Positions 24,847 to 44,869 of a stretch of DNA of 64,000 bases are shown piece after piece (position 1 is the stretch's first letter; every line of letters starts with the position of its first letter). The stretch covers positions 248,001-312,000 of the forward strand of contig QPGO01000030.1 of NCBI GenBank assembly GCA_008632985.1, in the 5' to 3' direction. The notes under the pieces were generated by a model that was not told where the DNA came from, made no database searches, and saw only the letters and a program-made list of their open reading frames with translations. The DNA is from Psammoneis japonica (lineage: Eukaryota). The position numbers were made by a program, and so were the translations under genes.

Positions 24847-25450
24847 TTAGGCGGCTTTTTTACGATTAGCCCAGACCCTTTCCTTGCGCTTGGCGGCTTG
24901 CACCTCTTGACGCATGCGGTGTAGAAGCGGAACATCTTCGTCCGGTCGACGTCGGCGGAGGCGGAGCTTCTTCTGAGCAGCGGGCTTTTCGCTTGTGCCA
25001 AAGCGACGTTCGTTGATGATTTTTTGACGTGCCAATGCTTGTATCTTTCGACGGTCGAAGGGTGATTCACGTTTCTTGTCCTTCGAACGTTTTTTAGTCT
25101 TGCGGACTTTACGGATGGTGCGTTTGTAAGTGGTCATGGCGGTTTTGGGCACTTTCGTTTCACGAGAAGAGTCGTCAAGATCGTCAGAATAGCTGGCAGT
25201 GCTCGATCGCTTCCTCTTTTTATTGTTCGACCGCTCGGCATGAATCTGGATAGGAATCGTCTTGGATGGCTTGGTCTCAGGGACTTGGAAAGTCGCGACG
25301 CACGTCTTGTCGACGTTCGAAAGTTGAACGGCTTGCTTCAACGCGATGAAGACGGCAAAGGCAAAGAGCGCATGTTCGATGGGAATGGAATAGCGCCGCC
25401 GAAGATGGTAGAGAGCGTCATGGTGAAGAGAAGAAGAGAGGTCTGCATGA
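24847..25450 (-). CDS. Hypothetical Lys/Arg-rich protein (start uncertain, possible frameshift near 25340)
   Basis: Coding-like GC/CpG-rich sequence; the 164-aa ORF has NLS-like basic clusters; no recognisable family. Confidence 0.4.
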
Positions 25451-26539
25451 TGATGTAGACTAGTAAGACGTAAGTCGATGCTTGATCAGTGGTCAACTTC
25501 GGAATTGTGAGAGGTTCAGCGTGATTGCGGTTTCGACGGCTTGCTCGGATGGATTGCTTCGACATACTAGACTTTACGTACATTCTACGGACGAACAAAT
25601 GTATCGTCAAAACCATCCGTCTATCACGAATGAAAAGCGGGCGGGCAGGTTTTGTACACAAAATATTATAGTAAAACAATCATACCATGTTCAACGCTGC
25701 TTGACGCGTGCAACAAACAAAATGTTTCTTACAAGGTACGATAAATATTCAACATTGCATAAGAATATAAAAATGAATTTCATGGGAATTGGGCGGAGGA
25801 ACTTTTTCATGGAACGCAAGCTCGCGCTCGCTCGCTCGCGATCGCGTTGTTTTCACAGGCTCGCTCCATCTTCAACCGTGCGAGGTAGAATGACTTTGTC
25901 GTGTCAGCTGCAGATGAAGGCCAGTGTACAACGGTCCCATTGCACATGAACATTGCGGGGATTGCTTCCGATGATTTGAATTGTGAAGCATGGATCTGGG
26001 CAAGGAGAAAACCAAGGAGTCCAAGAGACTGGCAGCAACAAAATAGCGGGAAAAAAAGAAGCAAAAGAACGCAGGGAACATCAGAAGAAGGAATCATCAC
26101 AAGACCAACGTGCAGCGAGACTGCAATGCAAGGCAGCACAGAAAGTGGATTGGCAGGGCAAGGAGTCAGAGAACCAACACAAGGTGAGGCTGCAATGATG
26201 CAAGGTGGCACCACAGAAAGTGGGTCGGCGGAGCAAGGAGTCGTCGGAGAACCAATGTGAAGAGAGGCTGCAATGCAAGGCAGTGCAGAAAGCAGATTGG
26301 CGTGGCCAGGCCTGCAGGGAGCATTGACCACTTGTCTTTCTTTGCAGGTGTGGGTGTGCGCCATTGTGTGCTGCGTTGCCTGTGTGTGCGCAGAGCCCCT
26401 GCCGGGGATGGCATTGCAGCGGCAGGGTGGCAGGGCCGCCACACTGGTGATGTGGATGACCATTGTGTTTGATGGCTCATGCCATTTTGGGGGCTGCAGC
26501 AAGGTGCACGGACACTCTTTTTTGTCCAATTTGCTGCCA

Positions 26540-26990
26540 AAAAAGCATGTCACACAAACTCACTTGTTGTTTGATGTGTTTTTTTTCCAATGTGACTGTT
26601 TCATGTGCAGCTCACAACAAATTCTCTTCATCCAGCAAAGCTCAATGCATTTTTCAACTTGCCATGCCAGCAATCCTGATTCTGCAGCACTTTCAAGCTC
26701 TTCTGAAAAAAGAGTTCCACGCACCCATTGCAGGGAATTTGATGATTTTTTAAGAAGTCCCCCCACAAACTCCAATGTCCTCAATGATCATTCTGTGAAT
26801 CCAAACAATGCATTTGTGCAAACAACACATGCTGTTCCAAAATCTGAGGGACACACTTTCCAATTCGGGCCGACTGCCCAAGGGACACAAAAAGTCTGCA
26901 ATCACCAACCACTGAGTGGTCAATGAAAAAATTTGCTCTCACAGTGCACTGGGCTCTTGACAAAACTTGTTTTTTGAACTCAGCCACAGC
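26540..26990 (-). pseudogene. Relic reading frame of an unknown protein
   Basis: Frame FIDHSVVGDCRLFVSLGQSARIGK..SQNDH*GHWSLWGDFLKNHQIP..FFRRA*KCCRIRIAGMAS*KMH*ALLDEENLL*AAHE is interrupted only by TGA codons that revert to CGA (Arg). Confidence 0.45.
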
Positions 26991-27539
26991 ACAACAGTTG
27001 TGAATTTTGGAGTGTCATTTGTTGGCTGAGTTGTCGAAATCAGCAAAAATCACAATGAATGAAACATGTGGCCAATTTTTGTGCACACACACCAAGTCAA
27101 TCCAGTTGTTGTTGTGTGTGGGTTTGAGCATGCTGACAATTTGAGCCATCCATTTGTCAGTTGGTGTGCATTTGTTTTTTGGTTTCCAGCGATGTTTGCT
27201 TTGTGCTGTGGCAATGTTCGATGTTTGGCACATGCTCTTGGCTCCTGCTCTTGTTCCAGTCTGTCTTTCTGCTGCCTTTGAACTCTCTGTTCTTCAAGCC
27301 ACTGCCCTGCTGTCTGTCTCATTGTCTCTTGCAGTCTGTCCAACATCTCACTGTTCTTGGCTGTGCTGGCATTGCGCTGTGCTCCAATCTTTGTGTTTCA
27401 AAGAGAGTCAGTTTTTGTGGCAGCTTTTGATGGTGAGACATGAAAGCAAAATCTCTGGCAAAAGACAGCAGAGAAGTTGTCAACTTCTTGGCATGTTTTC
27501 TTTGGCAAGTGTTGCACAATGCTGCTGCTTGCTTCTGCT

Positions 27540-28318
27540 CATGCATGTTGTGCTCTGTTTTGGCTGTGGCAGTGGATTTCTGCTGGCAAACACCAAATCA
27601 TGTCTGCTGTCTGTGCAGCTCTTCCTTGTTGCTCTGTGAACATGTCAGTTTTGCCTCTTGCAGGAGATTGCAGGGGGGTGTTCAGATGCCATGCTTGCAC
27701 AAGTGCTGGCATCAATGGCTTGCTTGTTGGAGAGAAGGAGGAGCATTTCTTGCACACCCAACTCCACAGCCCAGACTGTGTGAGTGGCAGTTGTGAGCAA
27801 GGCTTTGGTGAAAGAAACTCATTCAACATGGAGACTTTGTGCAAAGGTCAGCAGCACACAAACAATTGATGCTGCACTGCAACAATTGCATTGTCAACAA
27901 GATTGGCACTGGAAAGGCTCAATCTTTTGACAACATCTCATGACAGGAAAGCTGAACAAGGCTGCAAGCCTCCAAAAATTGTGCCGTTTGCAGTCAATGA
28001 AGTTCAGCTGCACATCATTTCTGGCTTGCATCTCAGCCAACCCTCCTGTGAGATCTGTTTGTGCTTGAACTTAAGACCAAAATGAAACAGAAGAAGGCTT
28101 GCCCATTCATCACAGCTTGTCATTGCTTCCAACAAAGAGAATCTTGTTTGAAGAATGCCGCCGCAAATTTCTCCATTCTCCTCCTCAAGCCTTTTTGCCA
28201 CTGCCAAACAACTCTGCATTTCTGGCTTCTTGCCCCATGCATTGCTTTTTAAAGTTTTGTTCGCCAGCCAACACTCAGGAATCAAAACTTTGAAAGGGCA
28301 GTTCTGGAGATTGGAAAT
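27540..28318 (-). repeat. Left arm of a ~770-bp inverted duplication (partner ~30034-30800)
   Basis: e.g. ttgtcaacaagattggcactggaaaggctcaatcttttgacaa (27891) is the reverse complement of ~30406-30448; similarity is continuous over the whole arm. Confidence 0.93.
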
Positions 28319-29109
28319 TGTCTGACCTTCAATGAGTGAAAAAGCACAAAAAATGGCACCAGTTTTTTTTTTGTTTGCCACAAGCTGCTTGCTCCCATGC
28401 CACACCTCTGACCTGTTGCCTTTGCCACAGCATTTCTTTGTTGGTGGGTGCAGAGTCCTGTGTGTCATTGGCGCCTTTCTGCAATGTTTTCATTGGTTGT
28501 TTGTGCACTGCTTGGATGCATCCTGTGTTTTTGTGTTGTGTGACAGTGACATGCCTTTGTGCCACATGGAGCCAAGCCAGTTGGCCTGGTGGCAACCATC
28601 GTCTGTGCCATTTTGCAAGCCATTTTCTACAAAAAGACTTTGTTGTGTGTGTGTGCATTTTTGAAGTTTGAGTCAACTTTTAACAAGTCATTTTGTTGGT
28701 CTTCATTGCCTGCGCACCTCACTTGTGAGTTGTCATTTGTTCAGCAGCTGGATGTTCAACATTGTTTGCATCAGATGCAGTGTGTCTGTTTGCAAAGAAG
28801 ATTTGTGTCTCAGTTTTTGTGATTTTGGTCAGCTCTTCTGTTGAGAATGAAACTTTGACATTTGTGCTGGTCTGCACAGTTTGTTTGTGTTTGTGCAGGG
28901 TTGCTGTTGCAGCTGGTCTTTGCAACCGCAGCTGATCCACACATGCACAACAACAACAACCCACCCCCATGGTGCTGGATGTGTGCCTGCAAAGAGCCAG
29001 AGCAGCATCGCCCAGCAGAGACATGAGGGCATTGCAGCTGCAGCACCTCCTCCTCCCCTGCAAGCAGCTGCCCACGCCATTGTGGTTTTGTCCCCAGCAG
29101 GTCAGTGGA

Positions 29110-30050
29110 GACTTGAACTTCCCAACTTCAGAGCAAAGTGACCTCATGGACTGATGGCACCAACCAAGAACCCAACAAGCAACAGTCAGCAGGCTGAGCA
29201 CTGGCAGTGTCTGGCAGACCTCAGGCAACACTCTGAGAACTGTGTGGTCAAGCATTGAGCAGAGTGAAAGGCCAGTGATGTGCACTTGTGGGGCCCTTTT
29301 ACATCCTCCTGCTGGCTAGAAGTGCACTTCAAACTCCCAAATCCAGAGAGAAAGGACCCCATGAAAGTGCCAGCCAACCTCACAACTGCCAGCAGATGGC
29401 ATTGGTGGTCTTTGGTGGGCCCCAAGTGAGACTTCAAGAGCTGTGGTTGGGCGCTGCAAGGTTGATCTCATGGCATTGTGGCCCCATGTCATGTTGTGCC
29501 CAACAGCAGGAGCAAACTTGAACTTCCAAGCTCCAGAGTCCAAGGACCCCATGACAGTGCCAGCCAACCTGAGAACTGCCAGCAGAGGGCATTGGTGGTT
29601 TTTGGTGAGCCCCAGGCAAGACTTTGCCAACTGTGTGGCCAGACATTGCAAGGTTTGTCTTGAAGTGCTGTGGCCCCAAACAATGTCACATTGTGCCCAA
29701 CAGTGGCAGACTTGAACTTCCAAACTCCAAAGTCTGAGGACCCCATGATGCTGGTGCCAACCAACCTGACAGCTGACAGCAGAGGGCATCAGTGGTCTTT
29801 GGTGGGTCCACTTGCAACTTTGAGAACTGTGACTGGGCATTGCAAGGTTGATCTTGCAGTGTTGTGACCCCATGTCACCTTGTTGGCCTTTCCAGCAGAA
29901 GCAGACTTGAGCTTCCAAACTTCAGAGTGCAGGGAAGCCAAGATGGCATCAGCCAACCTGACAACTTCCAGCACAGGGCATTGGCAGCCTTTGGTGCACC
30001 CCAGGGGTTGTCTCCAACAGAAGCCGACTTGAGTTTCCAAACTCCAGAGC
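29110..30050 (+). repeat. About five degenerate ~190-215-bp tandem units (relic of a ~64-aa protein repeat)
   Basis: Units begin acttgaacttcc-like at ~29111, 29326, 29516, 29709, 29905 and 30027 (partial) and share gaccccatg, gccaacct, cagcagagggcat and tgcaaggttgatct. Confidence 0.85.
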
Positions 30051-30800
30051 TGCCCTTTCAAAGTTTGATTGCTGGGTGTTGGCCAGAGAGCAAAACTTTA
30101 AAAAGCAATGCCTTGGGCATGCCAGAAATGCAGAGTTGTTTGGCAGTGGAAAAACAGCTTGAGGAGGAGAAGTGAGAGTGGCACTCTTCAAACAAGTTTC
30201 TCTTTGTTGGAAGCAATGACAAACTGTGATGAATGGGCAAGCCTTCTTCTGTTTCATTCTGATCTTAAGTTCAAGCAAGAATGGATCTTACAGGAGGGTT
30301 GGCTGAAATGCAAGTCAGAAATGATGTGCAGCTGAACTTCACCAATTGCACACCACCCAAGTTTGGAGGCTTGCAGCCTTGTTCAGCTTTCCTGTCATGA
30401 GACATTGTCAAAAGATTGAGCCTTTCCAGTGCCAATCTTGTTGACAATGCATTTGATGCAATGTGGCATCAATTGCCTGTGCTGCTGACCTTTGCACAAA
30501 GTCTCAATGTCAAAGGAGTTTCTGTTGCCAAAGCCTTCGTTGCAACTGTGCCACCCACGCAGTCTTGGCATGGAGTTGGGTGTGCAAAGAATGCTCTCCC
30601 TTCTCTCCAACAAGCAAACCATTGTTGCCAGCACTTGGACAAGCATGGCATCTGAACAACCCTCTGCAATCTCCTGCAAGAGGCAAAACTGGTGCATTCT
30701 TCACAGAGCAACAAGGAAGAGCCACACAGACAGCAGACATGATTTGGTGTTTGCCAGCAAATGTCCACAGCCACAGCCAAAACAGAGTGCAATGTGCAAG
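30034..30800 (+). repeat. Right arm of the inverted duplication
   Basis: Reverse-complement match to 27540-28318; in frame with the last tandem unit (DLSFQTPELPFQSLIAGCWPESKTLKSNA). Confidence 0.93.
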
Positions 30801-31430
30801 CATGGGCTGAAACAAAAACACAAAATCAAATTGCAACCATGTTGGCCAAGATGACTTGGCACCCCAAAACATGTTTGCAGCAGTTTGTTGTCAACCAACA
30901 GCTGCAAAGTGATGCTGAATGAAGCACAAATTGTGGCCCAGGCTGCAATCTGGGCTGACATTGGAGTTTGTCAAATTTTTGATGTGATGATGAGATCAAA
31001 CTAGTTGATGAGCATTCATGGCAACAGGAAGCATGAGTGGTGGCAGGGATTGAATGATGACACATGGCAGCTGTGGGGGCTGCTCAACATTGTAAATCAA
31101 CTGGGCTCTGGAGTGCAAATTGACATTGGATGGAAGGAAAGGACTCATGTCTGCAGTGGTTTTGTGTCTGCCAAAAGGGTTGGGGGGGGGGGGGTCAACG
31201 AGAAGTTCATTTTGAAAAGAGAGTCCTCTTTTCATTGTTGTCAGTCATGTGACAAGGACATGATGGAGTGTGACAGGGGTCCACTGTTGTCACACAAACA
31301 GTGGATCAGCAGCTGAGTTGTGTGGTGCTCAATGCAACAAAGAGCAGACAAATGCAGCAGAAACACATGAAATGCATGCAACAGGCAATTGAGCCAAAGC
31401 TCTTCTAAACAAATGACTCAGCTGTGAACA

Positions 31431-33383
31431 TGTTGGAACATTGGGTCAGAGGCAGTTTTTGTTGTGTGGACAGACAGAGCTGCAGTGTAAGATGCACTGA
31501 CAATGGTGGACAACATGGCAAGTTTGCACTCACAACTTGGATTGAGTTGCAGGTCTTGCACTTGCTTTTCAGCTTCTGCACCCAGTTGACATTGCAATGG
31601 CAGCTGGTGACATCAGTTGATGTGTTTGCAAACTGCACAATGAGTCAGGAGCAAGACTGAACATGCACCAGTCAGCAGGCTGCAAAACTCCAACACACAA
31701 GCCAAAAAGTCATGCGCAACACTCAAAGGAGTGTTGTTGCTGTTCAAGGACTGGGAAGTTGAGAAGAATCCACAATGTGAGTGCTGGGAAGTCAAGAGGA
31801 ATCCACAGACAAATGGGCCACCCAGGAGCGGTCAATGAGAATCCAAATGAAAGAGCCACAAGGTTGACAGGAGTCCAAAGGTGCACCTTGTGTCAGCAGA
31901 TTGCAGCAAACAAGCTGGCTGGAGGAGGGCAAAGAAACAATCTTTGGATGGCCTCCCTGTCAAAGAAGCTGTCAAGGGTTAATGAAAGAGGGCATGGCAA
32001 GGTTGCATTGGGGTTGGCAAGACAGAGTGTGCATCTGTTGGCAAGCTGTAAAACTCCAACGCAAGTCCCAGAAAAGATGGGCAAAGATGCAGCTGAGTGC
32101 GGAAGCACAAAAGAGTTGAAAGAGTGGGTGCACGATGCCATGACGAGTTAGGAAGAGCAGATGGATGCACAGAAACTGTGAAAAAGATTGGTGAGTGTGT
32201 TGGAAGAGTGTTTGGGCTGGACATGCAGGTGTTGGTGTCTCTGGCCTGAGGCAGCACAACATGCCAGGAGAGCTGGTTTGTTCATTGCTGGGAGACACCC
32301 CACATCAGAGAAGGATGAGGTGATCTGGGGCAAGAAGCACAACCACCATGTGGAGCAGAGTTCAATGTGCAAGACACAGAAGGCAAAGGTGTTCAATGCA
32401 ATTGTGTGGGGCAATTTGCAAAGGCCATTCATCACAAGCTTGAAGAAGGAGTGGCAGAGTTTGCAAGAATTGCACAGGAGTGAGACATGATGACAACACT
32501 GCTGAGTGTTCTCAAGTCAATGTTGTTTGACACAAATGAGAAGACAAACTTGCATGTCCAGGTGGTCAAGGCTTGGAAGCAATTGGTGCTCATTTGTCAA
32601 GACAAAGGAGAAGTGCTTCAAGAATGTCACAATTGTTTCATGAGCATGGTTGAAATGGTGGAAACACATCCTGTGTGGCAGGTCATTCCAGAAGAGGTTG
32701 CCAAGAAAGAAAACGGGTTCAGCAAGGGTGCTGATGACACCCAGAGTGAAGAGAAAACAAGTCATTGGCAGTGATGCCAATGGAAGGTGCCAACAATTGT
32801 TGGCATGTTTTGAAAGACCTGGATCAGCAGCTCACATTGGGGGTTGACTCATGCCCCAATTCAGACAAGGAGGCGCTGCAGGTGTTGGACACTTGTGGGA
32901 CCAACAAGAAACCTGAGGGCATGAGCTTTGTGCAGAATGACAAGAAGAAGGTTCCATGCTGGAATTGCAACAAAGTCAGAGATGTGAGGAAAGATTGTCC
33001 TGACACCAGTGATCATTCATTGGTTGAGCCAGATGATGTGGGCCATGGGAGTCAACAAAAAAAGGCCATGCAGTGTTGGGTGGGGTGGTTTCTCTTGTGC
33101 TTGATGTGCATGAGGTCAATCAATTGACAACTTGTGGGAAGGAGTGTGTTGGAACATCAGGGTTGGAGGTGGTTTTCATCACATGGATGGAAAGAGTTGC
33201 AGTGTGAGATGCATTGATGATTGTGGACAATGTGGCAAGTTTGCGCTCATCATTTGGATTGAGCTGCACAGGTCTTGTGCTCACTTTTGGCTTCTGCACC
33301 CAGTTGACACTGCAGCAGTTGATGTGTTTGCAGACCACATGGTGAGTCAGGAGATGGCAAGACTGGGTGCACACCGGTTGGCA
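31431..33383 (+). mobile_element. Decayed gag-only (non-autonomous) LTR retroelement
   Basis: Direct repeats 31431-31677 and 33147-33383 (both TGTTGGAACAT...GCA). Purine tract gggaaggag before the right repeat. Internal Gag relic QDKGEVLQECHNCFMSMVEMVE, LGVDSCP..ALQVLDTC and knuckle CWNCNKVRDVRKDCP. No pol and no recognisable TSD. Confidence 0.8.
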
Positions 33384-34399
33384 AGCCATGAATCCTCAAC
33401 AGAGCACCTTCAAAATTTCTGCCAATGCCTGTGCTCAGAACTCACAAAAAAAACATTAGACAGTGGTGCAAATGCCACATTCATTGAATGCAGTGGAGGC
33501 AGTCTGGTGCCCAAATCTCTTTACAACAAGATTGTCTTGGTGCCATGGTTGACAAGCATGCAAAGAGACTCGTGCACTGGGCCAATCTTTTCAGAGGAAC
33601 AATGGCGTGTCTGTTGTTGTTGCACTTTTTGCACACAGTGAGCACAAGACATGCATGGGTGAATGTGTCGTGGAACTTTGAAAAAGTGGGTGCATGAATT
33701 TTCTGCCCACCCACCCAAAATCAACTGCTGTCTGAGTGTGCAGCATGCCTTCTGCTGGCTGGCACTTTTCCAATGACAAGTGCACAAACTCAAAAACCAT
33801 CAACAGCAAAAATGGCACTCATCTGTGCAATGCTCATTTCAAAGACAATCATTTCACCACCGCTGACAGCCCCCATCCAAAATTGTGGCATTTTGGCAAG
33901 AAAGCTGAGTGTGTTGTGAGTTGCAGTTGTGTGTCTCATGGTGCAGCGGCATGTTTTTGGTGGTTTTGGTGTTGTTGCCTCTCCCTCTTGTCTTGCTCAC
34001 AGTCATCTGTCTCATCATGTTCTGGAGCAAGGTGGCAACATTCTACAATTCGAGATGTTGGTGCTTCACAAGTGAGTTGGATTGCTTCATGGACTGTGGG
34101 GGCACACTCAGTGACCAGCACTGCCAGTCATGATTTGGCTGGGGAGGATGCAGAGGAACTGCTTCATGTCAATTGTGCATGACAGCCAGTGTTGGAACAT
34201 CAAGTTGAGAACCCAGATGCTTGGAGAGCTGTGCCATTGTCAATGTCCCCAAGATTTGTTTTGTGTTTTGTTCTCACTCTTTTGAGTGAATCATCTGATT
34301 TGCATGAATTGCATCATGGTGTCAGCAGGCACCCATTTCACATTGCAAGTTTGAAGTTTTGTTGAGAATTTCTGGCAAAACTGCAGCTGCCTGAGCAAC

Positions 34400-35290
34400 C
34401 AGGGCAAGTGCAACAAGCAGCAGAGGAAGCCTTGGGATTCTCTTTTGGCAACATTGGCTTGCTGGCTCAACAGCTGGACTTGGAACTCTTCAACAAAACA
34501 ATCTGGGTTGGCCCACATGTGACAACTTGGACACTGACATTGTGCATCTGATTCATTTGTTTGTGCACCCTCACAGTTGAGTGTTGACCAACCTTGCACT
34601 CATGAGCACCCTCATTGTTGGGTGTGTTGGAGCCACATTCATGTCATTTGTGTGCAACGGCTGGACTTGGAAATTGACAAAAACACCTGGATTGGCTTTT
34701 GTGCAACAATTTTGAGCCCTTGTTGTGTGTTGAATTATGTGGTCACATGTCCATGTGGTTGAGTGTGATCAATCTTGCACTCATCTGTGCTGTTGGGTTT
34801 GCTGGGTGCACCCCTGCATTGTTTGTGCACAACGGCCACCAGACTTGGAAATTGACAAAAACACCTTCATTGGCTTTCATGCGCTGATTTTGGGCCATGG
34901 TCATTTGCACAATTTGTTTGGTCACCATGCATCCTCAGAGTTGAGTGTTGTGGTCAATCTTGCATGCCCATGTTGTTGGGCATGATGTTGGATTCACCAT
35001 TGATGGCCTCTGCTCAGAGCCAACAAAACCTGGCTTGGCTTTTTGTGCAGCATTTTGGACTTGCCGCTGTGTTTGGTGGTTTGATTCATTGGGCTGTGTG
35101 TCCTTGCAATTGAGTGTGATCAATCTCACCCTCACCCTCATTGGTGGGCTGGCCAGAACCGCTTTTGTGTCAATTTTGCATGACGGCTCTGCTTGGAACT
35201 CAACAATGAAGCCTGGAGTGGCTCTTGTGCAACAATTTTGGACTGCAATTTGTGTGTTTGGTTCATTTGGTCATGCATCCTTGCAGTTGA
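34400..35290 (-). repeat. About five degenerate ~170-185-bp tandem units (relic of a ~58-60-aa protein repeat)
   Basis: Plus-strand unit marker (g/a)ttgagtgt at ~34576, 34758, 34940 and 35110, with gttgag at ~35285; shared gacttggaaattgacaaaaacacct. The minus frame reads LNCKDA*PNEPN..PGFIVEFQ..RVRLITLNCKDTQPNESN. Confidence 0.8.
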
Positions 35291-36399
35291 GCAAGACTTC
35301 AAGAGATTGGTTCAGTGTGCACTTTTGCTCCATTGCTCCACTGGACAACTTTAATTTGTGGCAGTGCCAAAGTGCTGTGTTTGCCACAGTGTTTGCAGCT
35401 TGTTGTCAATCTTGCTGTCTTTTTGGGAGTTTTTGTAATCGGCAAGGTTTGGATGAGCAGCAACACTCAAAAGAGTCTTTGTGGCACCTGCAGTTTGAAT
35501 GTGTTGTTGTGCACAACACAAACCTGCACTCAGATGGCTGGCGCTGTTCAGCTTGTTGAGATGTGGAAAAAGAATTTGAAGTTGACATTGTTGTTGGCAC
35601 AATTCATGGAATCCACATCCTCAATGCTGGCCAAAGGTGCAAATGAACTGCTGCGTCCATGAATGGCAAGCCAGGTGGTGAGCAGCAACACTCCATCCAG
35701 GACATTGTGGTGTCAGTGGCTCAGAACATGTGCACAACCAACATGCACCCACTTTCAAATGTTGCAGATTGGCGTGGAAAACTTGAAATGTCAGAATCAA
35801 GTGACGAGACCTGGAGCTGCAAAGCAATCATGAGCCATGTGCAGTGGGCAGGAATGCAAGGAGAGCAGTGCAGACAGACAAGGGGCTCAAGTTCATGCAT
35901 CACATTCAGCCTTGCACTCCATGGCCTGGCTGTCAAAAGGGCCAAGAAGAAGATTGCAATCTGAGTTTCTTGTCACGCAACAAACCAAATGTGTGGTGCA
36001 CACCCTGCACATCTTGGGAACTGCCAGCTGCAGCCAAAAGGGTGTGCTGGCATCTCAAGTCATTTCAAATGAGGAAATGCTCAAACCAAACACCTGACAA
36101 CAAAAGCCAGCATGCCTGTGCATGCCATGCATGTGATCCCAGTGCCTTGTCACAGCATGTGCACCTGGTTGGCAAGGATTGTGTCTGGGGCCATTCTCAG
36201 GGGTGCAAACCATGCTCCTCTTGGTGATTTCACAAGGCAATCTCTTGACAAACAAACACAGAGGTGCCTCTGCCAGCTTTGGCAAAATGGCTCACCTTTG
36301 CTCAAATGCCTTTCATGTCAGGATCACCAACAAGAAATGCCACAACAGCTTTGGGGCGACCCCAGGGTGGTGGTGTGCGAATGACCTTTTTGAGGTGTT

Positions 36400-37215
36400 T
36401 CTCAAGAGATCCAAAGCACCAACATCACACCATTGGCCCGTTGGCAGTGACAAAATTGCAAGCTGGGTGGGTGTTTGAGGCACTGTGGCCATGACCCAGA
36501 GAAGAGGAAAATGGGAACGGCGGCTTCTCTCCCCTCTGTTGTTTTCATGAACTCTTGCCTTTTGAGCTCAACCGCCATGAAAGAAACCAGTTGACACAAA
36601 ACTGCAGCAGACTCTCTCCACAGTGGCAGCATGAGCTGCTTTGCAAAAAGAGGAGCTCCACTCAGCAAAGTGGACCTGAGTTCAATGTTGATCATGGGAT
36701 CCTGTCTGTGCCACATGCGACGGCTTGGGGCCAAAGCTTGAAATGAGACAGCTTCTTGTTTGAAAACCAAGAAAGAGTTGCGCCAGAATGGCAGCACCTC
36801 TTTGAAAAGAAGATTCAACCAGCTGTCTCTTCTTGACCTGGCATGGATTCTTGACCCACATCAAAATGCTTGCAGTTTTTTGAGCTGAGTTTTCTCCACA
36901 TGGAGGAGCAGGCACACACTCGTTTGCATGGGAGGAGAGCTGCTCACAAATCACAGCACTGGCAGAGCCTTGCTTTGGAAATGGAGGTGCTGCGCAGCAC
37001 CTGTCAAGAAGGTGAGAGTGCCCTCACATTGTAAAACTGTGCACTCATTTTTGTGGTGCAGATCTCTCAAACTTAACTTCTTTGGACAAGCCAGCACCAA
37101 GCAACTCTCTGGCAGCAGTCGTTGGGCATTTCCACCTGCACTTTGGGCGGGGTCAGTCATTTCAAGTGTCACTCCAAACCTCTGTGCTCATGGGGTCACT
37201 GCACTGGGTGCATCA
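36400..37215 (-). pseudogene. Relic gene of unknown function at the right edge of the hypermutated domain
   Basis: Protein-like ORF fragments 36951-37172 and 36402-36818, downstream of a CT-rich leader and a CpG-intact promoter-like segment (37320-37456). Confidence 0.4.
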
Positions 37216-37461
37216 TCTGGAACGCGACCAGCTGAAGATCTCAGAACAGAAAGATCTTGCCTTTCGTTCATTTCACTCTCTAACTCTACTTTCTTCACGC
37301 CACGAACACAGGCAGCAGGCTAAACTAAAGGATTTCAGATTGTTCGCCAAGTGAGTCTAATGATCTGAAATGACGATGCTGTGACGTGTTCGTGACGTCG
37401 ACCGACCTTCAACTCGCACGCGCACGCGACACGCGACGCACTCACCGCATCCACCAAGTAG

Positions 37462-37715
37462 TGTGAGCTAACAGTTTAATTAGAACTAAGTCGACAACTA
37501 GCCTTGTGATGAACACAGATAAACTGGTTGTGATTGCTTTGAATTTTGAAAAGGTGAGAAGACGAACGTCTCAACAAGTGTTTTCCAATAAGTGTTTGAG
37601 ATGTCTTCAACAATTTGGGGGCCGTACGTGTGAACAATTTGGGGCCATAGAAATCGAACATTGACAATCGAATGTCGTAGATGTCGCGAGGCATAAATAG
37701 ACGTCAACAGTCACA
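37462..37715 (-). repeat. 3' LTR
   Basis: 245/254 identical to 43383-43636 by manual alignment; contains an internal repeat aacaatttgggg(g)cc twice. Confidence 0.97.
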
Positions 37716-37726
37716 CTCCCTCATTC
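37716..37726 (-). other. Polypurine tract
   Basis: Minus strand GAATGAGGGAG immediately precedes the TG of the 3' LTR. Confidence 0.8.
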
Positions 37727-37737
37727 GATGAGATGGG

Positions 37738-40700
37738 TCACCAGCCGAAAAGCAAACGACGGAGCTTATAGAAAACCGCCTTAGGTAGCTGTTTCGTGAA
37801 GATGTCGGCTTGTTGATCGGCAGCACGAATGGGTTGAACTTTGATGCGGCCGTTGGCGACTTCGTCGCGAAAGTGGTGAAGTATGACGTTGAAGTGTCGA
37901 GTGCGTGGGCGCATTTTGGGTACGCGAGCGATCTCCAGTGCGGCGGAGTTATCCTCGAACATCGTGCAATGCATGACAGGTGTCGTTTTCACATTAATGT
38001 TTCTCTCCTTGAGTTCTTCCAACAGGCACATGATAGATTTCACATGTCTGGCAGCTGTAGAGAGAGCAATGTATTCAGATTCTGCACTGCTGAGAGCAAA
38101 CATTGTTTGCAGCTTGGAAGCCCAATATAGGGGCACGTTTGCAAATTTGATAGCAAAACCAGAGCGAGAGCGAGCTGTATCAGGATGGTTTGCTGCGATG
38201 GCCTTGTCCCAGTTGCCACAAAAATCAGCATCAACATAGCAATCAAGGCCATATATGTCGTCTGGTTTGATGATGTACCCTTCATTTCGGGTGGCCAGTA
38301 GATATCTTCCAATGTGTTTGATGGCAGCGCCGTGAGAAGCTTTGGGATTCGACGTGAAGCGGGCGCATTGGTGAGCAGCACATGCAATGTCACCTCTTGT
38401 TGATTTTTCTAAGAAGTTCAGTTTGCCAACAACAGAGCGGTAGTTCCATGATTCCTGAAAAGGTGCACCATCCGGATCGGGTCCGACAAGTTTTGTAGTG
38501 CTTGCTGGGAGCTCGTGTGTTTTGGTGTTGTTTGAATTCGAGTTGTTGCGAGTGCCAATAAGACCAAGGTCTTGGAGAATACTGTCAATAAGTTGTGGTT
38601 GGTATAGTTTGAAAGAGCCGTCCGGCAACGTTTCGATTTTGACGCCGAGGTAGTCACCAATGTCGCCTTCATCTGATATACGTGTACGTGTACCGAGGTC
38701 CTTGATACATTGATCAATCTTAGCATCCGAAGGATCGAACATAAGACCGTCGTCGGTATAAACTAGGAATGTGGTTGTTCCACGGTAGAAAACACATTCG
38801 TCGAATGAAGACTGTGTAAAGCCAATGTCGAGTAGTACGTTTCGTAAGAATATAAACCACGTTCGTCCAGCGTCTTTTCCTCCATATATATTTTTCAATA
38901 CTTCCAAACAATGCTTGTTACGATCCAGATTAGGAAAGTTGATGCCTCTTGGTAGTTCCATAAAGGTGGGCCTTGGAATGTCAGCGTGTGGATATGCCAA
39001 TACAAAGTCAACTTGTCTTGATTTCCATTTGAAGAGGATGGAGAGAATAAGGAATAGACGGATGATAGTCCAAGAAAGTGTTGGAGCATAGGTTTCCTCG
39101 TAATGTTTTCCTTTCTTCATTTTGTGTCCTCCAAGTTGAGTCGACTTTTCCACTTGTATACTTTGCGTGTGCCGATACGTCGCTTGCGCTTCATAGACCA
39201 TATTGCAGGAAGAATAGTCTCACCCTGTGGTACATCAGCCTTTTCAATAACTCGCCAATGTTTCCTATCGGTATGGTCTTGGACTTCTTTAACCATAGCT
39301 TTCTTGAATTCGTGAGCGTCTGGTTCGCGAAGAGCCTCGTGCATGTAGAGAGTGTCCGGGTCATTGGAAGCTTTCATGCTGTACAAAATGGGGTCTTCTA
39401 GTTGATTTCGGTCGTTGTCGATGAGATACATGTCCTGGGCAATAGCTTCATAAGTGGTTGCAGCGTATGAGACAATATTTTGTTCACGTTGAAGTTGTGA
39501 CTCAATGGCCCTTTGGGTCATTTGGACTTTACGACCAGAGCGAGTTGTGACCGTTGGTGTTGGCGATCCTGAGTCGGCTGCAGAAGTTTCAGAAGTCTCG
39601 TTTGTTGTTGATGGACCTCCCTCATTTGTTGGAGTAGCGGTTTCTGTTTGATCCGAGTGGCTTAGAGATGATCCTGTATCATTTGTATTGTCCATATCAG
39701 TTGGTGGTAAGTCCGATACATCTGGAGCAGGAGCTGTAGTTTGGCTTTTGTCTTGACTCATCAGTTGTTTTTGGGAGAAAATCTGACGCGTGCTTGTTTC
39801 TTGTAATGACACTTTTCTTGCCATACACTTCGAGGGATGACGGATGAGCCTTTGACAGTCTCAAATAGGTCGTCAAATTTGACATGGTATTGTGGAGAGG
39901 CAAGTCCTGTTTCAAGGTTAAGGATAAGTGCCACAGATCTGGCGTGTCTGGGTGAAGGTCCGAGATAAATGCCCACTCGTGCTCTTGTTTCCCACTTTGG
40001 TAGATGAGAGCCTGACTGTAACTTGTTCTTTAATACATATACAGGACATCCAAAAGAGTGGAAGTGTCGTAGTTTTGGTTTGACTTGCACGTTTGCGAAG
40101 AGCTCTATTGGAGATTCGTTTCTAGGAGATCTGGCGGTATGATTGTGCACGTTGTTGGCATAGCGTATAGCATATGGCCATAAGTGGTGATCAATAGCGT
40201 TTGGCCAGCGATGGTGAGCGTGTATAAGTTGTGTTCTCGCTTGCTCTTGTAGGTCTCTAATGCGTTTTTCTGCTCTGCCGTTTTGAAAGTGTGCATTGAC
40301 TCCGCAATAGGTTATATGCTGCCCTTGTTGACGTACCGATTTGATGAATGCGTTGTCAGCGAATCGTCCATTGTCGGCGTGATAGTGTTGGATACGGACT
40401 CCGAGGGAGCGGGCAAATGCTTCATAAGCAACTTTGGCGTGTAGCGTTTCTTCTGAGGTGATCGATTTTTGTAGGTATACGAATGACAGGTCGCTATAGT
40501 GGTCGACGAAGACCGTGACGTAGCGATATCGTTGACGTGTTGGTATGCCCTTGAGTTGAGCTATTAGTCCAGGCGTGGTGGCGTCGAGTTGGTCGACAGA
40601 TACTACTTGTCCGGCTGCAGTGGCTTTGAAAATTTTGGTTTGTTGTGTGCCCTTGGTTCGCCATGGTACCTTGGTGGCTTTACCATAGCGGCATGCAGCG

Positions 40701-41920
40701 CAGACGGGTACGCGGCAATCAGCGAGGCGCTTGGGTAGGTCTCCTGAGTTAACCATATGTTTAATGCGTGAGAATGGCAAGTGTCCGAGTCGGTAGTGCC
40801 AAAGTAGTAGTTCGTTGGTAGGAGTCAGGTCGTCTGGGAATGTTTGGTCCTCGACGACTGGAACGCCAAAGTTCATATCCGAGAAGTCCACCGTGTTGGG
40901 TGTCGTGGCTTCTGGTGTAGCCGTAGTTGAGTTTGTAGGCGTTGTAGCAGCTGTTGAGTTGCTGTTATCGATGGCCTCGTTGAACGTGTGACGTGCAGTT
41001 GGTGCAGTGGTCTGTTCTTCAGGTAAGTCTTCAGGTTCGGGTTCGATGATGTGTACATTTTGAAATACTTTAGGTTCTCGTGCTTGCGAGTTGTACTCAC
41101 GCTCAAATTCGTTGTGCTTGTCATAGGATGGAGCGGAGCGGAAGACTGGTACGTTTGCCTTGGAGAGCGGCATAGTGCGAGAGTATTTCTCGTCTTGCCA
41201 TCGAAGTATCGTTCGATCGTGAAGTGTCTTTTCATAAGTACCATCCGGATTGTTGGAAATTGGTGCGAGTACTTGTGCCAAGTGTTGTGGCGAGAGAAGA
41301 CGAATTGGAAGCGTAGGTACGTAGTACGTGTTCGGTATGATAAATTCATGAAGTAAGCCATCGTCGTCTTCAACCTTCCATTTAACTTTGCCCTTGAAGG
41401 TCGATTTGGCGTTACCACTGGCAGCTTCCACGACAACGTTGACCTTTGTTGGTGGTTCAATGAAGTCGTCTTTGTTATTCGTCATGCAGTAGGAGGCATG
41501 GTTATCAACTCCGATGTTGAACGAGTCTGTGTCGAAGTTGTGATCGCGGTGACCGTCGCAGTTACAGCCATGGGAGCAGGATGCGGTATGGCATGAGGCG
41601 TGCTGCGACTTGAGACCCATTAGTCGGTAAGTGGCTTTGTTGCACATAATGAAGTGTCGGCGTTTTCGTCGGATATAACGCATGTTGGTCTTGAGATAGT
41701 TTGGTTTCCTTGGTGGTCTACGACTTCTCAGGAGATATTCCGTCATTCGTCGTAACCAGGAACGCAGGAGTGGAAAGGAGTAGAGCCAGTTCAGCAGTTC
41801 CACCATAGCGCAGTAGATCATGTTGAGTGCGCAGAAGAATGGTAGGAAGACTGAGCATACACCGCAGAACAGCCACAACCGTAAGTACAACTTGACTCGT
41901 AATGCAGTGTTGGCGAACAC
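37738..41920 (-). CDS. pol: Copia Pol (protease, integrase, RT, RNase H), split by frameshifts near 39790 and 39125
   Basis: IGVDNHASYCM (PR); LWHYRLGH..C..C, VSVDQL, HADNGRF, QNGRAEKRIR (IN); ETYAP, RQVDFVLAY, NIYGGKDAGRTW, LVYTDD (RT); YVDADF, SSAESEY, FEDN, ADIFTK (RNase H). Confidence 0.95.
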
Positions 41921-43264
41921 TCATTCTTGATCTGATACGTCTTGTACGCCAACATTTGCCATGGAGGCAGTTAGGTCTGATTCGGCCTTGTCCTTGACGG
42001 TGGAGCAGTCCTTGGTAAGGTGAGCGGACCAATACTCGTGGTTCTTGCACCATTTGAATGTTTTACCCTCAACCGTCTTGGTGTGCGGTTGTCCGTCTTT
42101 AGGAGCTGCGTTGCGCCAGGCATGTTTTCCGTAGAAGAGGCATTTCTTGCATCCGTTGGATAGGATCTTGAACCTCTGGCGCCTGTTGTTATTGTTGGAA
42201 CCCGATTCTTTCGTTTTGTTGCCCTTGGTGGAGCTCTGAGTGGTTTTGTTGCTGTTGCCAGTAGAGCGTGGAGCGTTGCGAGCTTTGGTGTCACGAAGGG
42301 TCTTGACTTCGGCTTGTAGCGCTACGATGGTCTCTTGCTCTTTGGTTGGTGCCATCCACTTTTCAGATTCGATAAGGATCTTGTACTTGTTTTCAGCCTT
42401 GAGCATGAGAGCATGTACATCGAGATCTGATCCATCTTCATAGTCGCTCTTGTACTTCTTGATGGACTCGATGAATTCTGAGTCGGTGCACGTGAGGTAA
42501 GCCTTGAACACGTTGTTCAGCAGATCGGAACTAGTGTGGCCGCGAGCAGCAAGTTTCTTTTCCAAAGATTTGACGTGGTTGTTGAAAGTCTTGATGTTTT
42601 GACCGTCAATTGTAGCCATGTAAGCGTCTAGATTGCCCATTTGGTCACGGATTACCGAGACAGTAGCCCTTGTGTCGACTTGAGCCTTTGATAGAAGTGC
42701 CTTGAGGTAGGCTACACCGCATTCTTCGTCTCCAACAGTGTACTCAGCCTTTTCTTCCGTTGCCATGATGGTCTTGGAGGGCTCGTCTAGGGTGCTCTGG
42801 AGACATACGAGGAGTTGGTAGTTATTCTGCGCGTTGCGTTGCGCCAGATTGAGGTATGTAGCGGATACCGTGCGAATCTGCTCAGCTGAGATTTGTCCAT
42901 ACTCGGTGAGCATGTCCTTGTTCTCGGCTGGCAAAGCAGGAACTGCGCCATGGTTGATGTTGATCGTGAGAATGTCGTTCCAACCATTGGTTTTAGAACG
43001 GACCGCGAGTTCTTCTAGGAAGACTGGGATGTTGGGCGATTCAAGACTGAACTGGGTGTCCAACGGCTTGGTCGCGTCTGCGAAAACGAGCGCGTCACCT
43101 TTCTTGGTGTAGTCCAAAACGTCTGCACGGGCCAGCGCTGGTGACTTGGCGAAAGGTCCTGGAGCAGCTGCTGCTGGTGGTGCAGGCATGTTGTTCACAA
43201 TCGGCTGGACAGCCGCCTGGACAGCTTGTGCGATGGCGTTAGCGAGCGCGTCAGCGTCCGCCAT
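41921..43264 (-). CDS. gag: Copia Gag
   Basis: Intact 447-aa ORF inside the 5' LTR, with a C-terminal WCKNHEYWSAHLTKDC Cys/His motif and a TGA stop in frame with pol. Confidence 0.9.
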   Translation of the reverse strand: MADADALANAIAQAVQAAVQPIVNNMPAPPAAAAPGPFAKSPALARADVLDYTKKGDALVFADATKPLDTQFSLESPNIPVFLEELAVRSKTNGWNDILTININHGAVPALPAENKDMLTEYGQISAEQIRTVSATYLNLAQRNAQNNYQLLVCLQSTLDEPSKTIMATEEKAEYTVGDEECGVAYLKALLSKAQVDTRATVSVIRDQMGNLDAYMATIDGQNIKTFNNHVKSLEKKLAARGHTSSDLLNNVFKAYLTCTDSEFIESIKKYKSDYEDGSDLDVHALMLKAENKYKILIESEKWMAPTKEQETIVALQAEVKTLRDTKARNAPRSTGNSNKTTQSSTKGNKTKESGSNNNNRRQRFKILSNGCKKCLFYGKHAWRNAAPKDGQPHTKTVEGKTFKWCKNHEYWSAHLTKDCSTVKDKAESDLTASMANVGVQDVSDQE

Positions 43265-43369
43265 AATGAGGTCTTGAAGTTCCTGAGCACGTCTTTGTGC
43301 TCCTCTTGTTAAACGGCGTATCTTGTTGGTTCGGAGAGAACGTTGCTGGTTCGATTAAGAACACTTTAT

Positions 43370-43382
43370 CGCAGAGGAAGCG
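43370..43382 (-). other. Putative non-canonical primer-binding site
   Basis: Abuts the 5' LTR and lacks TGG; the plus strand CGCAGAGGAAGCG(TG) resembles the D-arm of eukaryotic initiator tRNA-Met. Confidence 0.55.
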
Positions 43383-43636
43383 TGTGAGCTAATAGTTTAA
43401 TTAGAACTAAGTCGACAACTAGCCTTGTGATGAACACAGATAAACTAATTGTGATTACTTTGAATTTTGAAAAGGTGAGAAGACGAACGTCTCAATAAGT
43501 GTTTTCCAATAAGTGTTTGAGATGTCTTCAACAATTTGGGGGCCGTACGTGTAAACAATTTGGGGCCATAGAAATCGAATATTGATAATCGAATGTCGTA
43601 GATGTCGCGAGGCATAAATAGACGTCAATAGTCACA
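43383..43636 (-). repeat. 5' LTR
   Basis: TG...CA termini, followed by the AGTAG TSD. Confidence 0.97.
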
Positions 43637-43738
43637 AGTAGTTATTAGAAATTCGGTGAAAGCCAGCCATGACGGCCGGCAGAAAGCTGTTGTAAAATTA
43701 GGCACGTTGCGTACGACAATCCGTAACCAGGCGTCACA

Positions 43739-44869
43739 ATGTTGTGTTTAAATATTCACCATTGTGGTAGAAGGGCTTTACTTACGGCTAGAAACAGACG
43801 TTTATCGACTGTAACAGTGACAAAGACCAAGGCGTCCTCACGACTGCAGGAACTTCGAGACAAACTGGACGCAGAGGATGCGAGCTTACACGAGTTTGCG
43901 GGAGATAAATCGGTCGTAAAGAGAAGAAAGGCAGCCCCCAGATCGGCCAAGATTTTGCCCAAGCCCAAATGGTTAAAGGCTCAACCTGCTGTGTCAGAGC
44001 AATACAAAGAACTACGGTCCACAGTGCGAGAACTGGGACTTGCCACGGTTTGCGAGGAAGCCAAATGTCCCAACATTGGAGAGTGTTGGAGTGGAAACCA
44101 AGATGGAGAAGGTGCGACAGCTACAATTATGATCATGGGAGACACCTGTACACGTGGATGTTCCTTTTGCGCTGTAAAGACGAGTCGAGCTCCACCTCCG
44201 CTCGACCCCGAGGAGCCTGAAAAGGTGGCTTCTGCCATTGCAAAATGGGGCTTGGATTACGTTGTATTGACCAGTGTTGATCGAGATGATTTGCCTGATC
44301 AGGGATCTTTGCATTTTCGAAGCGTTGTGCAGAAGTTAAAAGAAAAGAATCCCAAGCTGTTGGTAGAAGCTCTCACACCAGACTTCCGGGGCGATCTAGA
44401 TCTCGTAAAGGCTGTAGCCACGTCGGGATTAGACGTCTATGCACACAATATCGAAACCGTTGAGCGCCTCCAAAGGCGTGTCCGTGATCGACGAGCAGGA
44501 TACCAACAATCGCTAAAGGTGTTGGAAGGTGTCAAAACCTTTAACGATACAGCTCTTACAAAAACGTCCATCATGTTGGGACTGGGCGAAAACGATCAAG
44601 ACATTCGAGACACGTTGGCAGATTTACGTGGTGTGGACGTAGACGTGGTGACCTTTGGTCAGTATCTTCAGCCGTCTCGTAGACACTTGCCAGTAAAGGA
44701 GTACGTGACTCCAGAGAAGTATGCCGAGTGGCAATCCGAGGCGGAAGGGATGGGATTCCGGTATGTTGCTAGTGGGCCACTGGTGAGAAGCAGTTACAAG
44801 GCAGGCGAATTCTTCCTGACGAATCTGTTACGAGAACGAGAACAGGAGCAGGTGGCGGATGCAGTTTGA
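43739..44869 (+). CDS. LIAS: Lipoyl synthase (mitochondrial, radical SAM)
   Basis: [47 protein letters not shown]. Confidence 0.97.

Follow-up and report, generated by a model that had tools for sequence, protein, structure and literature searches.

One-sided loss of TpA in a long terminal repeat of a Ty1/copia element suggests local DNA-level hypermutation beside a TA/CG-free domain

Context-dependent transitions in mobile DNA are known from several systems. In fungi, repeat-induced point mutation (RIP) leaves the change from CpA to TpA as its classic signature, while in animals the footprints of APOBEC and ADAR on retroelements arise before integration on RNA or single-stranded cDNA, affect one strand and are copied into both long terminal repeats (LTRs). 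For the locus described here the closest known case, with which we would group it by analogy, appears to be the chlorarachniophyte Bigelowiella natans. In 15 mutation-accumulation lines of this alga the mutation rate of two integrated viral regions was about 1000 times that of the remaining genome; of the 231 mutations in these regions 230 were A>G or T>C, with all the GC-biased ones on TpA, and 124 clusters poor in TpA and rich in CpA+TpG were found genome-wide, for which Mettrop et al. proposed an ADAT2-like deaminase (preprint, 10.64898/2026.01.13.699255). The accessible text of that preprint makes no mention of CpG, diatoms or LTR elements (10.64898/2026.01.13.699255), and our literature searches found no TpA-destroying hypermutation described in diatoms. 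Here we analyse a stretch of 64,000 nucleotides deposited under Psammoneis japonica (contig QPGO01000030.1, positions 248,001 to 312,000; hereafter the window), in which a minus-strand Ty1/copia LTR retrotransposon at 37462-43636, identified by repeat finding, alignment and domain search, stands close to a domain of about 11 kb nearly devoid of TA and CG. We consider it rather probable that the element is a young insertion hit after integration by a local process changing TpA to CpA or TpG, and that the same process at saturation, together with CpG decay, made the domain.

The left LTR (37462-37715, minus strand, 254 bp) and the right LTR (43383-43636, minus strand, 254 bp) are enclosed by the target-site duplication AGTAG, which lies at 37457-37461, directly before the LTR start TGTGAG, and at 43637-43641, as located by alignment. 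Because the element is on the minus strand, the left copy, nearest to the domain, is its 3' LTR and the right copy its 5' LTR; these are the "domain-proximal" LTR and the "5' LTR", respectively, of a first-pass annotation of this DNA. The 254-bp alignment contains exactly nine differences and no indel, and all nine are transitions (left/right: 37472 C/43393 T, 37526 G/43447 A, 37527 G/43448 A, 37536 G/43457 A, 37575 C/43496 T, 37632 G/43553 A, 37659 C/43580 T, 37665 C/43586 T and 37708 C/43629 T). At all nine sites G or C is in the left LTR and A or T in the right one. Eight of the sites read CA (five) or TG (three) in the left LTR and TA in the right, and the ninth is the second base of TGG in the left as compared with TAA in the right. 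The left LTR holds 12 TA, 41 CA+TG and 11 CG, the right one 20 TA, 33 CA+TG and 11 CG; 8 of the 20 TA steps of the right LTR (about 40%) read CA or TG in the left, while all 11 CpGs are identical. The first-pass annotation had listed nine differences, eight at TpA and none at CpG, within an intact target-site duplication, and every motif that it listed was recovered.

The probability that at least eight of nine differences fall on the 40 TA positions among 254 is 3e-6, and the same test with the left LTR as ancestor (41 positions, C of CA or G of TG) gives 3.6e-6; the probability that all nine are polarised to one LTR is 0.004. Ordinary neutral divergence of an old LTR pair is hardly credible. 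The divergence of the pair, 3.5%, is common in old elements, but neutral decay does not account for nine transitions of the same polarity, eight at TA, with neither an indel nor a change at CpG, nor for a right half of the element that is nearly identical to the family majority. This explanation was refuted by the spectrum statistics (3e-6; 0.004). Within the LTR, ATA>ACA makes up five of the eight changes, the same trend as the loss of TAT in the domain, in a sample too small for a test.

On the plus strand the nine differences comprise five C/T and four G/A, interleaved along the LTR, and therefore both strands are involved. In the replication of a retroelement both LTRs are copied from the same template, so that differences between them cannot stem from edited RNA or from the template of reverse transcription. 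The claims of the first-pass annotation that both strands are affected and that neither RNA editing nor reverse-transcription error is responsible are borne out by these two observations. The locus resembles the APOBEC and ADAR footprints of animals in its deaminase-type, context-dependent and clustered transitions in an LTR element, and differs from them in that the LTRs are unlike each other and both strands are affected.

The direction of change cannot be read from the LTR pair alone and was thus sought from outside sources. The first was a public read set in the form of contigs (X1), in which the depth is about 55 over the single-copy flank and 300-1000 over the element, indicating that the family consists of several to about 15 copies. 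The second was another set, X2; the site-level readings from X1 and X2 come from 40 of the 465 differing places, all of them outside the nine LTR sites. As the third source, 60 distant copia proteins and, in addition, 50 full-length proteins were used. The protein searches gave no close paralogue, and since the best identity was 66%, the protein relatives are usable as outgroups only. The gag segment, which did not align to the outgroups, was left out of the 50-protein alignment, and residues near the two frameshifts were ignored.

At a series of internal sites beside the left LTR, the window reads CA or TG where other copies in X1 read TA: 37824 (348.7 of a depth of 348.7), 37831 and 37846 (each 292.7 of 348.7), 38200 (238.3 of 238.3), 38356 (57.1 of 57.1) and 38740 (225.7 of 264.4). 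The same relation was found against X2 at 38487 and 38527. The outgroup proteins agree in direction. At 37824 the window encodes Ala and the other copies Thr, the 60 outgroups showing Thr 50 times, Ser 8 times and Ala never; at 38740 the window encodes Met and the other copies Ile, with Leu, Phe, Ile or Val but no Met among the 60; at 38487 Val in the window stands against Ile in X2, with Leu 41, Ile 15 and Val 1 among the 60; and at 38430 Val in the window stands against Ile in 92% of the 50 full-length outgroups. All four of these sites (37824, 38740, 38487 and 38430) are TA>CA on the plus strand. By comparison with other copies and with outgroup proteins, the window copy is thus the derived one at these internal sites.

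The right half of the element represents the family majority. Three X1 contigs (depth 244-308) over 40446-43079 differ from the window at a single place in 2334 nt, as compared with nine differences in 254 nt in the left LTR, and this contrast agrees with the earlier proposal that TpA mutation is fast. Where conserved columns of the integrase half (39825-41920) deviate, transversions prevail and no TA-type change occurs. We thus propose a hypermutated tract from 37462 to about 38750, comprising the left LTR and about 1 kb of the reverse transcriptase and RNase H region, with at least 17 putative TA>CA/TG sites, namely eight in the LTR plus 37824, 37831, 37846, 38200, 38356, 38430, 38487, 38527 and 38740. 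The composition of this tract (Rho_TA 0.53 and Rho_CA+TG 1.30, as compared with 0.70-0.71 and 1.15-1.17 in the remaining element) corresponds to a deficit of about 16 TAs, matching the 17 identified sites. Along the element the loss of TA falls off from one side: the LTR lacks 8 of 20 TAs, the kilobase after it about 9 of 46, and the part beyond virtually none. Rho_CG of the tract is 1.03, CpG being unchanged; together with the 11 conserved CpGs of the LTR, this is in accord with the earlier suggestion that TpA mutation precedes CpG decay. Because the right half represents the family majority, a single derived tract from the left LTR to about 38750 explains LTR and internal sites alike, and the left LTR is probably the mutated copy and the right LTR the unmutated one, the nine sites sharing one direction. 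The change from A:T to G:C in the domain-proximal LTR, as first annotated, is supported in this indirect way, by the adjacent TA alleles of other copies and by the outgroup proteins.

Several observations weigh against this reading. The direction at the LTR sites depends on the internal sites, and each X1 contig is placed on the better-fitting of the two LTRs. At 37824, 38200, 38821, 39749 and 39759 the letter of the window is absent from all X1 contigs, and contigs drop rare variants. Three positions show TA in the window against CA or TG in the majority of other copies, namely 37648 (220.6 of 312.6), 38833 (362.2 of 506.8) and 43442 (551.6 of 800.8); these fit the same process acting in other copies and also fit the reverse direction in this lineage. 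A Pro>Leu change at 39664, at an invariant proline (100% conserved), is TG>TA. In an uncertain alignment, a diverged LTR variant shares the state of the left LTR, G, in the column of 37527. One of the nine LTR changes is off TpA, unlike the B. natans spectrum, and the responsible enzyme is hypothetical. Counted along the full element, the places of disagreement between X1 and the window comprise 224 with A or T in the window and G or C in the others, 137 of the reverse kind and 82 transversions; other copies thus also vary heavily on the axis between A/T and G/C (361 transition against 82 transversion places). Finally, the flank between the domain and the LTR (37281-37461, 180 bp) is not depleted of TA, holding 6 TAs with Rho_TA 0.59 and Rho_CG 1.52, and an X1 contig is identical to the window there. 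Were a hypermutable state continuous from the domain, one would expect stronger depletion in this older flank than in the LTR, but the flank is normal, and spread from the domain therefore finds no support. The dependence on position relative to the domain that had first been proposed is thus not upheld, although the tract is polar within the element.

Some of these points favour a change in the opposite direction, by which the left LTR keeps the ancestral CA and TG and the right LTR took C>T at CpA (G>A at TpG) in the manner of RIP. The LTR pair alone gives no direction, the change from CpA to TpA would be classic for RIP, and the TA sites at 37648, 38833 and 43442 and the TG>TA change at the conserved proline codon point the same way. 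The four coding sites beside the left LTR are polarised oppositely, however, and with one difference in 2334 nt in the right half, any mutated tract would need its limit precisely at the right LTR, and the left part would call for a separate story. RIP strikes both duplicate copies, whereas the LTR changes are divided 9 to 0; the element is not enriched in TA (Rho_TA 0.53-0.71), the domain displays the reverse process at saturation, and the host is a probable diatom, not a fungus. The fungal hallmark, C>T at CpA in both copies with a rise in A+T, stands against polarised sites that are TA>CA, an unchanged G+C and a depletion of TA. The locus does share with fungal RIP dinucleotide-specific transitions on both strands of mobile DNA, the potential to disable an element early and a compositional footprint; it differs in that TpA, which RIP makes from CpA, would here be destroyed, in that G+C is unchanged instead of falling, and in that one LTR of the pair is affected in a host that is not a fungus. 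We judge a RIP-like origin to be quite unlikely.

It is also possible, though in our view rather unlikely, that the left 1.3-2.3 kb came from another, hypermutated copy by gene conversion, by chimeric assembly of the repeat or by mis-polishing. A family of several to about 15 copies, with 361 transition and 82 transversion places in X1, offers the material for such an exchange, and several window letters in this part have no support in X1. Against it, the intact target-site duplication excludes a simple crossover, and an X1 contig of single-copy depth (about 56) carries the G of the window at 37831 and 37846. Differences between the window and the majority are also one-sided: among those listed for 37716-38930, about 11 are A:T>G:C in the window and 2-3 are the reverse, with 2 transversions. 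Moreover, a donor copy would still need a TpA-specific process.

The domain extends from about 25928 to 37280 (about 11 kb) and is nearly without TA and CG and rich in CA and TG, with G+C unchanged. The observed/expected ratio is 0.03 for TA (26 TAs left), 0.11 for CG, 1.97 for CA and 1.82 for TG. By arithmetic on the dinucleotide counts, about 413 TA and 569 CG are missing and about 1076 CA+TG are in excess. The cluster thresholds of the B. natans preprint are passed by 11 consecutive 1-kb windows (26001-37000). Among the 26 surviving TAs, nine are in TTAA, as compared with 3.7% in the rest of the window, and eight are in GTAA or TTAC, while hardly any TAT-type site is left. The two TAs that close the domain on the right, 37032 and 37075, read CA and TG in X1; these are the only differences between X1 and the window across 37000-37462 (463 nt), and TA loss therefore differs between samples or haplotypes. 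Nanopore reads are subject to a bias that miscalls TAG as TGG and TAC as TGC, for which we found no printed source; a contig of accurate reads supports the right end of the domain.

The domain contains an inverted repeat of 780 bp, with arms at 27542-28319 and 30032-30798, or 27520-28340 and 30010-30820 in wider bounds. At 11 dinucleotides one arm has CA and the other TG, six one way and five the other, and the arm alignment also has 31 other transitions and 29 transversions. From the CA/TG double differences the state of the domain arose in place, on both strands, after duplication of the arms. We read the domain as the same loss of TA carried to its end, with decay of CpG in addition.

The composition of the domain also bears on the mechanism. 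The same direction of change might be produced in another way, by polymerase-eta-like patch repair at WA after deamination of methyl-cytosine or by ADAR-like editing. Polymerase eta prefers WA, and ADAR prefers U over A as 5' neighbour. The ADAR preference is also given in the accessible text of the B. natans preprint (10.64898/2026.01.13.699255). In line with such an agent are the double change from TAA to TGG in the LTR and A>G at ApA within the same tract at 38375, 38821 and 38928, where for 38821 and 38928 the depth of A after an A in X1 is 807.3 of 807.3 and 560.2 of 772.9, respectively, against G in the window. In the saturated domain, however, AA stands at 1.27 (flanks, 1.12) and TA at 0.03, so that the specificity for TA over AA is very high; edited RNA cannot make LTRs differ, and the changes are interleaved on both strands. 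There is thus only a slim chance that such an agent was at work, and the clustered WA-type mutator that the first-pass annotation had suggested finds no support, AA being undepleted in the domain and AA>AG changes being few in the copia tract.

Returning to a TpA-directed process, we propose the following course of events. After integration of the element, a DNA-level process would turn TpA into CpA or TpG (A:T>G:C, on either strand), leaving CpG and almost everything else alone. The affected tract would be the 3' LTR plus roughly the next kilobase (37462 to about 38750), with the 5' LTR and the right half untouched. Saturation of the same process, with ordinary decay of methylated CpG, would yield the adjacent 11-kb domain free of TA and CG. 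Diatoms methylate their transposons, and the loss of CpG in the domain is probably the decay of methylated cytosine. The spectrum, the action on both strands, the localisation, the derived letters of the window copy at internal sites and the composition of the domain are observed; the agent behind them would be an enzyme that targets the palindromic TpA step where foreign or mobile DNA is silenced. Since RNA editing and AA-hitting mutators fail, an agent recognising TpA in double-stranded, probably silenced DNA is most likely, and adenine deamination, as proposed for B. natans, is the leading candidate.

As far as the accessible text of the preprint goes, the agreement with B. natans concerns several features. 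The changes, if their direction is as proposed, are almost exclusively of the A>G/T>C type and fall on TpA, where the strand that is hit decides whether TpG or CpA results: all nine LTR differences are transitions between A/T and G/C, with the direction taken from the neighbouring internal sites only, and eight of nine LTR sites plus nine internal sites lie on TpA. In both cases the changes keep to foreign or mobile DNA, whose rate differs from that of neighbouring sequence by orders of magnitude, the long-term product is a cluster poor in TpA and rich in CpA+TpG and mostly without annotation, and the remaining TAs are polymorphic between samples (here 37032 and 37075). The present case differs in that the host is a probable diatom (Stramenopila) and not a chlorarachniophyte, in that the target is an LTR retrotransposon, affected at one end only in a partial tract that seems to have been caught early, and not a virus, and in that the evidence is comparative in place of mutation accumulation. 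It also differs from what the accessible text reports in the one LTR change of nine off TpA, in the additional depletion of CpG in the domain, in a Rho_TpA of 0.03 against 0.45 in their viral region and in the resistance of TTAA (9 of the 26 surviving TAs), a context of which that text says nothing.

If our interpretation is true, a second lineage, and the first retrotransposon target, would be added to a TpA-directed DNA hypermutation known from one 2026 preprint, a hint that a genome defence running counter to fungal RIP is more widespread among eukaryotes. The LTR pair would serve as a built-in control of before and after, according to which integration comes first and the process then works on both strands, outpacing CpG decay. 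LTR divergence would then be a poor clock in such genomes; domains that lack both TA and CG would be a simple marker of old foreign DNA without recognisable genes, and the responsible enzyme would be of interest for base-editing research. We regard it as a tentative extension, somewhat short of an even chance, that diatoms and chlorarachniophytes share a TpA-editing defence on double-stranded DNA of foreign or mobile elements, which here hits a young retrotransposon and, with CpG methylation, writes "fossil" domains free of TA and CG, the enzyme being a natural TpA-specific DNA adenine editor that spares TTAA.

The element has the hallmarks of Ty1/copia, including direct LTRs with ends TG..CA (TGTGA..TCACA), inverted termini of 5 bp and a target-site duplication of 5 bp; a purine-rich run adjoins the 3' LTR. 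Its reading frames are all on the minus strand: a reverse transcriptase/RNase H frame at 37738-39201 (RVT_2, E 7.9e-24), a protease/integrase frame at 39761-41920 (gag_pre-integrs, SH3_retrovirus and Pol_BBD), overlapping the next frames out of frame, and a gag-like frame at 41921-43264 ending at an in-frame TGA (41921-41923). The order of integrase upstream of an RVT_2-type reverse transcriptase is that of Ty1/copia. The frames of the window copy are broken by this TGA and two frame changes, and where the frames shift, single-base indels separate it from other family copies (others +1 behind 39130, -1 at 39744 and 39773). The in-frame TGA parting gag from pol is also present in a high-depth X1 contig over 41752-43079 with no difference from the window; since it is shared, it may be a normal read-through stop of the family and not damage. 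The locus resembles diatom Ty1/copia elements, the group named CoDi, in its TG..CA LTRs, 5-bp duplication and gag, protease and integrase before RVT_2, and it differs from the known ones in a protein identity of at most 66% in the searched collections and in the frameshifts relative to other copies. The best relatives of the reverse transcriptase frame share 63-66% protein identity, and those with a name come from the diatoms Nitzschia inconspicua and Fragilaria crotonensis. No second copy of the element was found within the 64-kb window, and LTR-motif scans of metagenome contigs gave no match. The LTR carries an internal repeat, AA(C/T)AAGTGTTT, whose second unit has TA in both LTRs, and a diverged LTR relative in X2, read at a loose end at 43509, likewise has TA at this site. 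Both observations favour the proposed direction of change.

The genes of the window include those for topoisomerase II, Brr2, an RRM protein and lipoyl synthase. The complete lipoyl synthase frame (43739-44869) starts about 100 nt from the right LTR, and the insertion therefore sits in the upstream region of a housekeeping gene. The named relatives of this lipoyl synthase are nearly all from diatoms, Asterionellopsis (79%) being followed by Trieres, Amphora, Ditylum, Seminavis, Chaetoceros, Pseudo-nitzschia, Nitzschia and Fragilariopsis; the sole non-diatom among the best named relatives is a fish protein with only 64% query coverage, and none of the proteins found was nearly identical. From lipoyl synthase and the copia relatives, the host is probably a diatom.

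Within the domain no Pfam family was found at E <= 0.1 in the 34 of 61 frames of at least 90 amino acids that were tried, with only four sub-threshold hits, and its six read-through frames gave no Pfam match at E <= 0.01. A comparison in a purine/pyrimidine alphabet detected internal repeats only and no relative of the domain elsewhere in the window. Tandem arrays with periods of about 67 and about 190-200 nt lie at 29179-30005, 34468-35298 and 26061-26302. Both borders of the domain are CpG-rich with sharp edges (25000-25927, Rho_CG 1.53; 37281-37461, Rho_CG 1.52). At the left edge, depletion of TA begins about 400 nt before that of CpG, the last normal TA being at 25927 and CpGs continuing to about 26440.

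Two further observations concern contigs with gaps. One X1 contig (depth 57) joins the flanks of the element from 37462 to 43642, skipping 6179 nt with 3 letters at the joint; an empty-site allele is a possible source, but with 30 letters on the shorter side (limit 31) the contig was not counted. In X2, contigs skip 38369-38435, 39955-40043, 40212-40289 and 42017-42101, stretches of 65-87 nt that start with GT and end with AG on the plus strand. The contigs resemble spliced transcripts in antisense orientation to the copia frames, X2 being labelled "DNA?" and behaving like RNA, and because they carry TA alleles, they derive from another copy of the element.

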